Positions 39,325 through 43,668 of a stretch of 64,000 nt of DNA are shown here, in pieces (within the stretch, counting starts at the first letter, position 1; each line of letters begins with the position of its first letter). The notes under the pieces were generated by a model that was given only the letters and a program-made list of their open reading frames with translations, was not told the origin of the DNA and ran no database searches. A program made the position numbers and the translations under genes. The DNA comes from Rubripirellula sp. (lineage in GTDB: Bacteria > Planctomycetota > Planctomycetia > Pirellulales > Pirellulaceae), in NCBI GenBank assembly GCA_965216875.1, contig OZ244207.1, positions 6,048,001 to 6,112,000 on the forward strand, in the 5' to 3' direction.

Positions 39325-41976
39325 TCATGTCATGCTCAATGTGTCAAAGATGTACGAGAGCGAATCTTCACTCTTGCTTCCAATGCGAAAGTAAATCGGC
39401 TCGCCAATCGTGACGTCGATGATTCCGCCCGGGATTCCTGACGATGCTTTGGTGGGATAGGCGTCAAGCAGCGTTCCTTCTGCGTCCCAAATGGTGATTG
39501 AAAAGTCAGCGTGACTACCATCCCTTGCCGTGAGCCCAAACCCAAGACGGTCGGTCGTCGGTTCGATGACGTAAAGGTCCAGCGTCGTGACAGATTGCAA
39601 ACTGCTCTGCGTCGAAACTCCATCGGTCCCCGGAGTGATCAGGACGGCCGATGAGTATTCTTGCGGAGTAGGCGGTGTCACGTTAACGAAGTCGGCTGGC
39701 GTGCCGTCATCGAGAGGCAGGTTCGGACGGGCGACAAACGAGGGTATCTCTTCGTCGGTCGATAGAAACGGCAATGCGTCTGGCGAGAAGACAGCGTGCG
39801 TGTGCTCACTTTGGTCGACTTCGTCATTTGAAACGACTCCGATTCGATTAATGACGCGGAGTGCATCCGACGCCGAGAGTCGGCTATCACCGTTGGTATC
39901 GAGTTCACGGTCGTAGGACGATTCGCTCGTTTCTTCCGAGTCTTGCCCGAGCCGGTTGATCACTCGCAGTGCATCGGAAGCCGTCACGTTGCCGTCTCGG
40001 TTCGTATCATCTTGGGCAAGGAAAAAGTATTGTTGCTCTGCCGCTCCGAGCACGAGCTGCTGCGTAGTACCGGCCTGGGTAAACGTTGCCGATGCGAGTT
40101 TGATGTTTGCTGACCCGTCTGCAATGCGCCGGAAATTCAACATGACCAGATCGTGTCCTGTGGAGAACCCGTTGAAAGCACTCAGGGTGACACGACCAGG
40201 ACTCTCGTCAGTTCGCTGAAGAAAAGGAAAGCCACGACCGTATTCGGTTCCTACCAATTCGACGCTTGACGGATCATACGAGAACGTGAGTTCAAACTGA
40301 GAAACACGGCCAAGGCCACTCGAAGAGACCGCTACGTCAATCGCCTCGTTCAAATCGGAAGCGGCCACATTGAAAGTGACGTCGGCGACCTCCGTTACGT
40401 CGACCGTGATCGTGCTCTCCAATGGCTCGCCATCCTGACTTTCGCCGACAACCGTCACGGTGTCCGTTCCTACGAAGTCCTCCAAAGAGTGATACTTGAG
40501 TGCGAGGAGCTTTCCTTGTCCGTCCCGCCGCACCGTCACATTGGCTCCCGATTCACTGGTCACACTTTGCAGGGTTGCCAGTTGCCACGCGGCGCGCTGG
40601 GGTGAGGTCAGGTTTCCCGTTGTGGTGAAGACAGAGTGGATGGAAAGGTCCACACTCAATCCGCCGCCCACGATTCGACCGGCGTCCAATGGAACCAACT
40701 CATCCGCGACCACTGTCAACTGGCTGAGCGGTTGCTGCACCGCAACGTCGACTCGAAATCGACCGGCTGCTTCATTCCACAAGACGCTCGAAACGCCAAG
40801 ACCTCGCGATTGGACGGTAATCTTTTCATCGACCATCACGAGATCAACGTTGACGCCTTCAAGTACTTCGTCGGTCAGCAAGATTCCTTCCTCAATCTTT
40901 GCGATCACAGATTCCAGATTCGCCTTGCCTTGTTCCGGCGTACCGATCGATTCGATAGGATCGGCCGATGGGTCTCGACCCAAGATCGTGATATCACCCC
41001 TTTGCCCGTGAACGACTTCGCCGGCCTGGCCAAGAAGGAAATTTCCTGCGATGACGTTGTCGGACCCCAGGTCAAAGGTGGGTGGATTCTCGGCAAACGC
41101 GACACCAACAAAGCCGCCGTTGATCACCCCAAATTCCCCGCGCCCATTCTCCGTGATTGTCGACCCAGCGATCGTCGTGTCCTGTGACGAAAAAACGCCA
41201 AGTCCATTTCGGAACAAGATCGAATCTTCCACATCGAGGCGGCTCGACTCATCCCTTTGTGCGATCGCGCGAGATGACACGAGCCCCACGACAGACGCCC
41301 CAGCAACCGTCGTATCAACCAGACGCGTGGTGGCTTCGCCGGTTTTGACCGCACTTCCACTGCTGTCGATTAACGCGGACCGGCGCACGGTGAGTGTGCC
41401 TGCGTTTTCGATTAATATCGTCGCCAGCGACATGTCAATCCGCTCGGGGTCGACCAAGCCTATGATCGCAACCTGATCCAACTCGGCGACGCCACCAACA
41501 TCGACGATCAACGCGCGAGGCGGAACAAGGGCACCGGGATTCGGCTCCATCGATCCATAGACCGTGATTCGGCTCAAACTCAGTGACGCTTCCGGCCGCA
41601 CCGCAAAGACTGCGGAATCAAGTTGCGGCAAGATCGAGACCTTGCTTGGCGACGTCCCGATGAGATGAATGTCTGACGTGATCTCGAGAACGGCTTGGTC
41701 GGCAGGCGATGCCGCCAACGACGACAAGTCGTAGTTGGCCGGAGCAAGCTCGATCGTGTCCGGCTCGGGCGTCGAGTTCGCTGTGGCAACCGCCTCGGCC
41801 AGCAACGCCGCCGGATCCTCACCCGGTTGCGGCGAAACGGACAGCACTGCCAACAACACCCGCTCATCAAGCCGCTCGAAGCCAACCGGTCGTCGAGTCG
41901 CGGGTGGCAGAACGGCCCGGGCCGCCCCACCACGAATTCGAAGATACTCTTGAAGTCTTTTTCTATTCTCGCGCAT
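39325..41976 (-). CDS. exported beta-helix/Ig-like protein with cohesin-like and dockerin domains
   Basis: RRPVGFERLDERVLLA; ANSTPEPDTIEL; FVGTDT; FELTFSYDP; duplicated DTNRDGNVTASDALRVIN / DTNGDSRLSASDALRVIN. Confidence 0.8.
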   Translation of the reverse strand: MRENRKRLQEYLRIRGGAARAVLPPATRRPVGFERLDERVLLAVLSVSPQPGEDPAALLAEAVATANSTPEPDTIELAPANYDLSSLAASPADQAVLEITSDIHLIGTSPSKVSILPQLDSAVFAVRPEASLSLSRITVYGSMEPNPGALVPPRALIVDVGGVAELDQVAIIGLVDPERIDMSLATILIENAGTLTVRRSALIDSSGSAVKTGEATTRLVDTTVAGASVVGLVSSRAIAQRDESSRLDVEDSILFRNGLGVFSSQDTTIAGSTITENGRGEFGVINGGFVGVAFAENPPTFDLGSDNVIAGNFLLGQAGEVVHGQRGDITILGRDPSADPIESIGTPEQGKANLESVIAKIEEGILLTDEVLEGVNVDLVMVDEKITVQSRGLGVSSVLWNEAAGRFRVDVAVQQPLSQLTVVADELVPLDAGRIVGGGLSVDLSIHSVFTTTGNLTSPQRAAWQLATLQSVTSESGANVTVRRDGQGKLLALKYHSLEDFVGTDTVTVVGESQDGEPLESTITVDVTEVADVTFNVAASDLNEAIDVAVSSSGLGRVSQFELTFSYDPSSVELVGTEYGRGFPFLQRTDESPGRVTLSAFNGFSTGHDLVMLNFRRIADGSANIKLASATFTQAGTTQQLVLGAAEQQYFFLAQDDTNRDGNVTASDALRVINRLGQDSEETSESSYDRELDTNGDSRLSASDALRVINRIGVVSNDEVDQSEHTHAVFSPDALPFLSTDEEIPSFVARPNLPLDDGTPADFVNVTPPTPQEYSSAVLITPGTDGVSTQSSLQSVTTLDLYVIEPTTDRLGFGLTARDGSHADFSITIWDAEGTLLDAYPTKASSGIPGGIIDVTIGEPIYFRIGSKSEDSLSYIFDTLSMT

Positions 41977-42072: not shown

Positions 42073-42231
42073 GAAAAATCACACTTGCTGTCAAACCTCA
42101 TCCAGCGGCAGGTTCGCGGCCAATCGTGTCAAGCAGATTTCGTTCATTTTGCGACGCTGATCATCAAACAAGAACAGCTCGCCAGTGATCTACTGACGAG
42201 CTGCTTCGATATACCCAACAAGTGACGAACG

Positions 42232-42762
42232 CTATTTCTTTTCGACGCCGAGCTCCTCGAGCTTTGCGGCAATGTCTTCGCCGTGATTCCCGGCTTTGAC
42301 TTTCTTGTCGACGTACAGAATCTTGTTGTCCTTGCCGATGTAGTAAGTCCAACGGCTCGCAAACCCGCGAGGACTCAAGCAACCAAATGCCTTTGCGACT
42401 TCCTTGGTGGGATCGCTCAAAATCGGATAGTCGAGGTCAAGGCTTTTGGCAAACTCGGTGTTGCGCTCGACCGGATCAGTACTGGCGGTGAAGTAAGCAA
42501 CGTTGAACTTTTTCAGGATCTTGCCACTCTCACGGAGCGACTTGCATTCCTTCGTTCAGCCTCCGGTGAACGCTTTCGGGTACCAGGCGATCACCACCAC
42601 CTGTTTGTCTGTAAAGTCCTCATTGCTGTACGTTTTGCCGTCGCTGCCGACAAGCGAAAACTTCGGTGCCTCGTCGCCCACGCTTACCTCCGCGTTGACT
42701 GTTGGTGCAGCCAGCAACAACGTGCAAGCCACGACCAAGCTAGTGGAAAACCATCTTTTCAT
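42232..42762 (-). CDS. exported Bcp/AhpC-TSA peroxiredoxin, probable selenoprotein (in-frame TGA at codon 69)
   Basis: signal peptide-VGDEAPKFSL...WYPKAFTGG-TGA-TKECKSLRE...FTASTD...DYPILSDP...RWTYYIG; the frame is continuous across TGA at 42556-42558. Confidence 0.82.
42516..42550 (-). promoter_or_regulatory. putative bacterial SECIS element
   Basis: GUCGCUC-CGUGA-GAGUGGC hairpin (42523-42541); loop starts 22 nt after UGA and contains GU; possible GGA/UCC lower stem. Confidence 0.55.
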
Positions 42763-42903
42763 CACGATCCCTTTATTGAAACAGAAAACAGAACCAACAC
42801 CTATCGGCTGGTTCATCCGCTCACTTCGAGCAAGCCTAATCAGCGGCCAACTCGAAAATCAATCACCAATGTGGTGTTGTGAGGAAGCAAGTCCGATGCC
42901 GAG

Positions 42904-43668
42904 TCAGTCTGCACGATTGGTATGAAGTTTTTCGAGCAACTTGGCCGCTCCCGTTCCGAGCATCAGCGTGTCGACTCCCGCAACCACCAAGTTGTAACCC
43001 CGCTCGATGTAGGGCTGGACCGCTGAGGCCGAGACCCCGAAAAACCCCAGTGGCATGCCGGCGGCTTGGCAAACCGCTGTGACACGTTCGATGGCGTCGG
43101 TCACTTCGGGATCATCGATTTGCCCCATCTTGCCGAGGCTTGCCGACAGGTCATACGGCCCTACAAAAACGGCGTCGATTCCGGGGACCTTTACGATCGA
43201 CTCAATGTTGTTGACCGCATCAATGTGCTCAGCTTGGACCACCACGACGGTTTCGTCATTGGCCGCTTGCATGTACTCGTTGAACCGCAGCCCATAACCG
43301 TGCGCGCGAGCCAAACCGACGCCACGATTGCCCAACGGCGCGTACTTCGCGAACCTAACCACCTGCTCTGCGTGTCTCGTTGTGTTGACCATGGGCGCGA
43401 TCACGCCCGCAGCCCCCAGGTCCATCACCCGTTTGATGTGCGTCTCGGTGGTTTCAGGCACGCGTACAAGGCAAGGGGTCGTTCGCCCAACCGCCTGGAG
43501 GATGCCTTGGACGTCGGAGGTTTCGAGCGCACCATGCTCGGCATCAACAAACAGCCAATCGAAACCACTTTCGGAAAGGATCTCAGCAACCGCGGGCGTC
43601 GCCAGCGTTACCATGGATCCACAAAGTAACTCACCCGCCTTGAGGCGTGATTTGAATTCGCTCGACAT
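42904..43668 (-). CDS. HpcH/HpaI (GarL/RhmA-like) class II aldolase
   Basis: GFDWLFVDAEHG, LVRVP, MDLGAAGVIAPMV, FVGPYDLSASLG. Confidence 0.92.
   Translation of the reverse strand: MSSEFKSRLKAGELLCGSMVTLATPAVAEILSESGFDWLFVDAEHGALETSDVQGILQAVGRTTPCLVRVPETTETHIKRVMDLGAAGVIAPMVNTTRHAEQVVRFAKYAPLGNRGVGLARAHGYGLRFNEYMQAANDETVVVVQAEHIDAVNNIESIVKVPGIDAVFVGPYDLSASLGKMGQIDDPEVTDAIERVTAVCQAAGMPLGFFGVSASAVQPYIERGYNLVVAGVDTLMLGTGAAKLLEKLHTNRAD

Follow-up and report, generated by a model that had tools for sequence, protein, structure and literature searches.

The window, i.e., the whole stretch of 64,000 nucleotides of Rubripirellula sp. DNA that was analyzed, carries on its minus strand a peroxiredoxin gene of 176 codons plus TAG (42232..42762). 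The gene was identified by sequence, Pfam matches, and predicted fold; it reads in a single frame from an ATG at 42762 to the TAG at 42232-42234 and contains one in-frame TGA (42556-42558, residue 69), which is almost certainly read as selenocysteine (Sec). A preceding sequence-only reading had joined two open reading frame fragments, 42556-42816 and 42232-42420, into one frame interrupted only by this TGA, and both fragments indeed proved to be in frame. The start proposed there, ATG 42762, is likewise borne out by the orthologs and by a public stub of the gene, all of which start at this position. The ATG at 42816 given in the open reading frame track was rejected, since orthologs start at the later ATG and the longer stub is absent from the protein collection. 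A purine-rich stretch resembling a ribosome-binding site lies five bases 5' of the ATG (42768..42774, minus strand; a weak call from the letters). The terminator-like hairpin 3' of the stop codon (42173..42205, minus strand) is weak because three such sites were found against 2.2 expected by chance, and a promoter scan returned no sites. The window neighbors, an HpcH/HpaI aldolase and an exported dockerin-domain protein (42904-43668 and 39325-41976), gave no sign of a functional link.

The TGA lies in the active-site context PKAFTGG-U-TKEC, i.e., at the cysteine position of PxxxTxxC. Its coincidence with the peroxidatic residue, which had been claimed before, is supported by the comparison of orthologs and by the aligned residues P62 and T66 of the PxxxTxxU active site (42577-42579 and 42565-42567, both minus strand) and Arg137 (42352..42354, minus strand), the conserved catalytic arginine of peroxiredoxins. 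All three are invariant in an alignment of 112 proteins, and Arg137 aligns with the corresponding Arg of Bcp1 (3drn). The TGA codon (42556..42558, minus strand) is covered by contigs from three of four sequencing runs without any different letter, the fourth run having no coverage; one covering contig belongs to a metagenome from a different study and, over 801 bases, has six differences at other places, and one of the covering runs may be the source of this same DNA. The independent contigs agree, and an assembly error is thereby ruled out.

Read through the TGA, the protein has a Pfam AhpC-TSA match spanning residues 28-150 (E 2e-27), and AhpC-TSA and Redoxin are its only Pfam matches. The predicted fold is that of a peroxiredoxin (mean pLDDT 91, with low values for residues 1-22), and the marks of the superfamily are present, comprising the active-site Pro, Thr, Cys/Sec, and Arg together with the Prx fold. 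The protein also shares the combination of a PF00578 domain and PxxxTxxU with the Sec 'Peroxiredoxin (Prx)' family. By both sequence and predicted fold, the closest solved structures are BCP/PrxQ proteins, and 35 of the 35 structural neighbors listed are peroxiredoxins or BCP-containing entries. No NCBIfam model passed; the best was PRK09437 (bcp) with only 85.5 bits against a cut-off of 140, and we therefore use the label 'BCP-like' instead of bcp equivalog. Compared with the motifs in the accessible part of PMC5302317, PKAFTGG-U fits the PrxQ motif P(K/A/R)(D/A)xTxGC with U for C, and the second PrxQ motif, G(V/I)SxD, is absent, with TASTD at residues 92-96. The AhpE motif PxAF(T/S)xxC from the same partial source also fits; BCP entries outrank AhpE by sequence and structure. 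The original assignment to Bcp/PrxQ thus holds as far as the nearest class is concerned, but the protein scores below the curated cut-offs and fits the AhpE motif as well. The class assignment lies between BCP/PrxQ and AhpE, the former being the nearest.

The genome, a single contig of 8.26 Mb with 99% completeness, encodes the entire machinery for Sec insertion. selA (E 3e-123), selB, and selD were found above cut-offs and are clustered, and a tRNA-Sec with UCA anticodon is the sole UCA tRNA among 99 tRNAs. The sequence-only reading had named exactly these components, and for a genome lacking them it had held a non-canonical readthrough route in reserve; with the machinery complete, such a route is unnecessary. 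TGA is an ordinary stop, ending 785 of 2182 long frames (at least 450 codons), and an altered genetic code was rejected on the basis of this regular use and the single UCA tRNA. The same two observations bear on a reading of the UGA as Cys or Trp by a suppressor tRNA or altered code, which we consider extremely improbable. The arguments for it are the abundance of Cys orthologs and a database protein with Trp at the site (P0028); the latter, however, shares 98.6% identity with a TGA gene, and its Trp is best explained by mistaken gene calling under code 4. In addition, a SECIS-type hairpin tracks the TGA across orthologs (see below). In a blind genome scan for TGA flanked by coding-like sequence and followed by a hairpin, the peroxiredoxin site ranked second of 61 candidates.

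Regarding the arrangement of the sel cluster (contig 325171-334000), selD is a 749-codon fusion and lies together with selA and selB. The cluster adjoins an apparent formylmethanofuran dehydrogenase subunit B gene with a TGA before HGP (judged by eye), and a similar arrangement has been described for planctomycete P2 (PMC4807772).

For comparative analysis, 41 related genomes were searched; 30 gave a match, and 24 close orthologs were read. These 24 and the best 80 of 310 loci from a genome collection formed the ortholog set, of which 103 of 104 could be parsed, leaving 99 distinct genes after four duplicates were dropped. Six distant canonical BCP-like loci (L046-L051) and a Cys locus missed by the parser (L041) were excluded, the latter being counted only in the selB tally; at three loci with two motif matches, the first was kept. 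Among the 24 close orthologs, 14 carry TGA and ten Cys at the active site. In the 99 genes, including the best 80 of 310 loci, the codon for residue 69 is TGA in 72 and Cys in 27, all genes are full length (at least 171 residues), and the record labels assign them to Planctomycetota, Verrucomicrobiota, and Acidobacteriota. In a separate phylum sample, 58 of 301 genomes had matches, with a single in-frame TGA at 39 of 64 places listed.

The presence of selB follows the codon closely, with selB in 14/14 TGA genomes versus 2/10 Cys genomes, and selA-family matches separate the groups less (14/14 versus 6/10). Lineages without Sec machinery would be expected to retain the same protein with Cys. 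Relative to the query, pN/pS was 0.29 before and 0.30 after the TGA for the set including the best 80 of 310 loci, with synonymous sites near saturation. TGA/TGC alternation and purifying selection 3' of the TGA, as anticipated by the sequence-only reading, are thus both present. They also leave next to no probability for a dead gene, in which the TGA would be a nonsense mutation or sequencing error. The 68-residue stub recorded for this genome among public proteins would fit such a gene; against it stand the same-codon TGA in all 72 TGA genes across three phyla (best 80 of 310 loci included), the equal selection on both sides of the codon, and the agreement of independent contigs.

Kinship has to be considered in reading these associations. 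A quick tree required 11 Sec/Cys changes, compared to 24 when shuffled, and well-supported branches force only one; tree-corrected contrasts on this quick tree (hairpin, selB, or Tyr61 versus the codon) left a single supported pair. With one forced change and one supported pair, co-variation is therefore not statistically shown free of kinship. Residue 61 is Tyr in 66 of the 72 Sec forms and Phe in 23 of the 27 Cys forms (best 80 of 310 loci included), an association that may itself reflect kinship. Natural Sec/Cys pairs share 65-72% identity.

Several members of the ortholog collection deserve separate mention. In L032 (genome G007), a C-terminal domain resembling a Cys glutathione peroxidase (by eye) follows the Sec peroxiredoxin in one fused protein of 360 residues. 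L042-L045 form a well-supported clade of four Sec forms with an insertion of about 22-25 residues directly after the SECIS codons, and with the loop-closing hairpin pair swapped, G-C for C-G. L095, L100, L102, L109, and L115, labelled Klebsiella or Akkermansia, are Cys forms near-identical to Pedosphaera-like Verrucomicrobiota genes, and these labels are probably wrong.

The hairpin of the bacterial SECIS type lies within the coding sequence (42523..42541, minus strand) and occupies +15 to +33 after the TGA. Its stem comprises seven pairs, two of them G-U, and its loop, CGUGA, is located at +22 to +26, 21 bases from the UGA. According to the accessible part of PMC13188914, bacterial SECIS elements have a loop of 3-9 nt, a stem of 4-16 bp, a distance of 16-37 nt from the UGA, a G in the first two loop positions, and an energy ≤ −7.5 kcal/mol; here, we found a loop of 5, a stem of 7, 21 nt, G then U at loop positions 2-3, and −9.2 to −11.9 kcal/mol. 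Stability was not significant in wider sequence context, with 12 of 200 shuffles as stable over 53 nt (z −1.6) and 78 of 200 over 60 nt; for the 25-nt hairpin core, one of 200 shuffles folded as well. Support for the hairpin consequently derives from the comparison of orthologs and not from the stability of a single sequence. Across the set including the best 80 of 310 loci, a same-register hairpin with GT in the loop was present in 70/72 TGA genes versus 3/27 Cys genes, by a rule that was derived from the query and favors the TGA group. In the genome, a hairpin with GT loop follows 710 of 283,832 TGA trinucleotides. The orthologs, again with the best 80 of 310 loci, use CGT as loop codon in 70/72 TGA genes versus 76 of 342 other Arg codons there, their stem pairs co-vary (e.g., G-C 44, G-U 13, and A-U 13 at +18/+30), and their synonymous divergence, measured against the query, amounts to 0.30 across the codons of the hairpin versus 0.75 and 0.78 elsewhere. 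The 7-bp hairpin with GU-containing loop, claimed to begin 15 nt 3' of the TGA, therefore stands as a conserved element within the known SECIS limits, and does not stand as a significant fold on its own. Three Cys genes (L078, L098, and L114) retain the hairpin and possibly represent recent Sec-to-Cys changes. Taken together, the machinery, the TGA/TGC alternation, the hairpin kept among orthologs, and the purifying selection acting beyond the TGA support the recoding of UGA to Sec that had been put forward.

At its N-terminus, the protein carries a predicted Sec-pathway signal peptide (residues 1-24; 42691..42762, minus strand) with a basic start, a hydrophobic core, and V-N-A before the presumed mature E25. 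It was recognized by an in-house hydrophobicity rule instead of SignalP, with an inferred cleavage site. The signal peptide that had been noted before is thereby supported, and by the same rule a similar N-terminus of about 24 residues occurs in 96 of the 99 genes (including the best 80 of 310 loci). In that same set, we found a twin-arginine motif in 0/99 and a lipobox in 1/99 genes. The sequence makes export likely. A cytoplasmic protein, or one anchored in the membrane by an uncut N-terminus and not released into the periplasm, is improbable, even if the export call comes from the in-house rule and not from a dedicated predictor, and a periplasmic location was once assigned in error to E. 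coli Tpx (PMC3322552, accessible part). Speaking against this localization are the basic-hydrophobic-small pattern of the extension, kept under free sequence drift in the same 96 genes with the best 80 of 310 loci, and the lack of any such extension in five canonical BCP genes of relatives.

The second conspicuous feature is Cys73 (42544..42546, minus strand), four residues after Sec69, a candidate resolving cysteine by its conservation. The UxxxC spacing noted in the sequence-only reading is invariant: Cys at +4 is found in 99/99 orthologous genes (best 80 of 310 loci included) and in 120/120 nearest database proteins, in Sec and Cys forms alike, and it is the sole invariant second Cys, the other cysteines of the protein being variable. 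Of the best 150 cluster representatives, 128 had a readable motif, with Cys plus a second Cys at +4 in 81, at +5 in 18, and none nearby in 25; this tally is no unbiased census because the profile was built from +4 proteins. In canonical PrxQ, the resolving Cys is located at +5, as in the signature of grape PrxQ (PMC4749874, accessible part), and we found no precedent for a resolving Cys at +4 in the literature searched. The export-type start and the invariant +4 Cys are, at the sequence level, the marks of the subfamily.

Sec could also be inserted into a one-centre peroxidase, with Cys73 structural or buried and an outside thiol resolving, a less likely alternative. Canonical PrxQ proteins have Ala at +4 and their resolving Cys at +5, about one third of the PrxQ proteins have no resolving Cys according to partially available sources, and residues 67-78 form one helix in the model, so that a bond from i to i+4 would require unwinding. 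The complete conservation of Cys73 argues against a one-centre enzyme, as does the origin of resolving cysteines at several positions in the PrxQ class, again according to partially available sources. We also considered metal binding by the U/C-x3-C pair. Sco-type copper chaperones combine CxxxC spacing with an exported thioredoxin-like fold, and this resemblance is the argument for a protein that binds metal without reducing peroxide. Such a role is very improbable and was discarded in view of the Pfam content, restricted to AhpC-TSA and Redoxin, and of the structural neighbors; the invariant P62, T66, and R137 also speak against it.

The sequence data favor a selenoprotein peroxidase with resolving Cys73. 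Very probably, the gene encodes one exported enzyme with Sec inserted by the SelB/SECIS route. SelB would almost certainly bind the hairpin just 3' of the UGA and deliver Sec-tRNA(UCA), giving Sec at residue 69, a mechanism known from other bacteria. The signal peptide would, with good probability, route the chain via Sec translocation into the periplasm. There, Sec69, held by P62, T66, and R137, would reduce H2O2 or organic peroxides and form a selenenic acid, for which the family gives high confidence. Cys73, one helical turn off, would then resolve it by forming a Se-S bond once helix 2 has locally unwound, a step toward which we lean. For re-reduction, we cautiously prefer, at little better than even chances, a periplasmic thioredoxin-like protein that would be fed by the single DsbD/ScsB-type carrier of the genome, as for PprX of Caulobacter. 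The genome encodes a single DsbD-family protein, with DsbD_N, DsbD_TM, and thioredoxin domains, as well as a UxxC redoxin that looks exported and has its own in-frame TGA (contig 1772173). No conserved partner gene was found beside the orthologs, the largest neighbor cluster (58 loci) being an antisense frame of the gene itself, and the neighbors within the window are shared with one close relative only; gene context therefore names no partner. Rather unlikely, and offered as speculation, is an undescribed class of envelope peroxidases that resolve through a Sec-x3-Cys bond inside a single helical turn, supplied by a selenium relay from the DsbD/ScsB-type carrier via the exported UxxC selenoredoxin to the Sec peroxiredoxin. 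If true, this would be the first bacterial periplasmic selenoperoxidase pathway, one occurring widely in Planctomycetota and marine Verrucomicrobiota and masked by annotation.

Nine further Sec candidates were identified in the genome, with TGA at contig 5002400, 8114242, 1259663, 5006761, 3179718, 1772173, 3658658, 1685310, and 353597. In this order, they are an FG-GAP/DsbD_N protein, a DUF3179 protein, a rhodanese, an HMA lipoprotein, a membrane-anchored protein without family match, the UxxC redoxin, a membrane protein of 1102 residues, an ArsC-like protein, and an AhpD-like protein. Six of the nine have a signal peptide or anchor at the N-terminus (by eye), and the sequences suggest that the selenoproteome of this genome is largely exported. 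The membrane-anchored candidate (592 residues, contig 3178756-3180531) contains IPGFT-U and has no Pfam or NCBIfam match, and 8/8 of its matches in 41 genomes have one in-frame TGA; it may be related to the HSGNPxU selenoprotein family TsoX, going by the accessible part of PMC13188914. The 1102-residue protein (contig 3658044-3661349) contains GGL-U-PGC, and eight of 11 matching genomes have the TGA.

Regarding tRNAs, a canonical-looking tRNA with CUA (amber) anticodon at contig 3282034-3282109 (minus strand) was called tRNA-Pyl by aragorn. No PylS was found over the cut-off in the genome, and the tRNA body had no match above 81% identity in 40 relatives. Among long frames, TAG is the most frequent stop (928/2182), and this tRNA may be a suppressor, or a decayed or mobile tRNA. 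Furthermore, there are two large tRNA gene arrays (contig 591000-594748 and 628016-632638), and a tRNA with four-base anticodon was called at contig 3442059.

The sequence-only reading had expected annotation pipelines to split the gene, and in a protein collection of about 15 billion entries this genome is indeed represented by the 68-residue stub. Among the 120 database proteins closest to the peroxiredoxin, 119 have Cys and one has Trp, none being a Sec form. The full-length protein and two guessed C-terminal fragments gave no identity match in the collection, in a look-up that is blind to U-bearing records, so a corrected record may still exist. Since the gene is cut to a stub and the nearest proteins include no Sec form, antioxidant inventories of planctomycetes and marine Verrucomicrobiota miss it. 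The points of modest interest are the predicted export, the cysteine at +4, and an envelope relay that may be based on selenium. With natural Sec/Cys pairs, a +4 Cys, and a likely periplasmic location, the subfamily offers a ready test of selenium's benefit to a peroxiredoxin in an oxidizing compartment.

Both the recoding and the family were known before. The Sec 'Peroxiredoxin (Prx)' family (COG1225/PF00578, TxxU) is listed, in the accessible parts of the respective sources, with 43 genes in the 2005 Sargasso Sea set (PMC1088965), with 12 in genomes in 2006 (PMC1794560), with 253 in the 2008 GOS set (PMC2398784), and in a 2026 inventory (PMC13188914). The BSepDB input list includes many planctomycete genomes (PMC13326102, accessible part), and 'AFTGG' gave no match in the deep-Sep supplements (PMC12013277). 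In the literature searched, largely outside subscription journals, we did not find the UxxxC spacing, export, or biochemistry of this subfamily, and for CxxxC in BCP peroxiredoxins nothing closer than one review.

Among characterized proteins, canonical BCP/PrxQ (PRK09437) is structurally close, as shown by Bcp1 (3drn; Foldseek E 7e-16, TM 0.84 by target length). The canonical BCP of a relative shares 34% identity with the peroxiredoxin studied, and the canonical form has its second Cys at +5, whereas we found a signal peptide, the second Cys at +4, and TASxD where canonical proteins have G(V/I)SxD. PrxU of Eubacterium acidaminophilum, a Sec peroxiredoxin shown experimentally (cited in the accessible part of PMC13188914), likewise has Sec at the peroxidatic TxxU position; however, it represents a different, longer class, and the NCBIfam model peroxi_PrxU gave 30 bits against a cut-off of 270. 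PprX of Caulobacter crescentus is a periplasmic BCP/PrxQ peroxiredoxin reduced by ScsB through TlpA, and resembles our protein by description in its signal sequence, PxxxTxxC, conserved Arg, and BCP-like character (PMC3322552, accessible part). Unlike the Sec and +4 Cys described here, PprX, according to the partial text, is a Cys enzyme whose two cysteines are widely separated along the chain. Sec-peroxiredoxin candidates of planctomycete P1, reported in 2016, come from the same phylum, were split into two genes, had a SECIS element, and had a Cys protein as nearest match; the table lacks sequences, and likeness to this subfamily is by description only (PMC4807772, Table S9). The closest counterpart is the Sargasso Sea entry AACY01494158, which reads PKAFTGG-U-TAEC-KSLRESG, shares the +4 Cys, and uses the same codons to form the hairpin (motif level, by eye). 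'AFTGG' occurs three times in the accessible 2005 supplement (PMC1088965) and 23 times in the GOS dataset file (PMC2398784), and most family entries there are of the TPG-U type ('TPGU' 26 and 142 times, respectively). The AFTGG entries are read fragments without complete N-terminus or organism, and the accessible text mentions neither export nor the +4 Cys. By its sequence, the gene adds a new member to a subfamily that has been on record since 2005.
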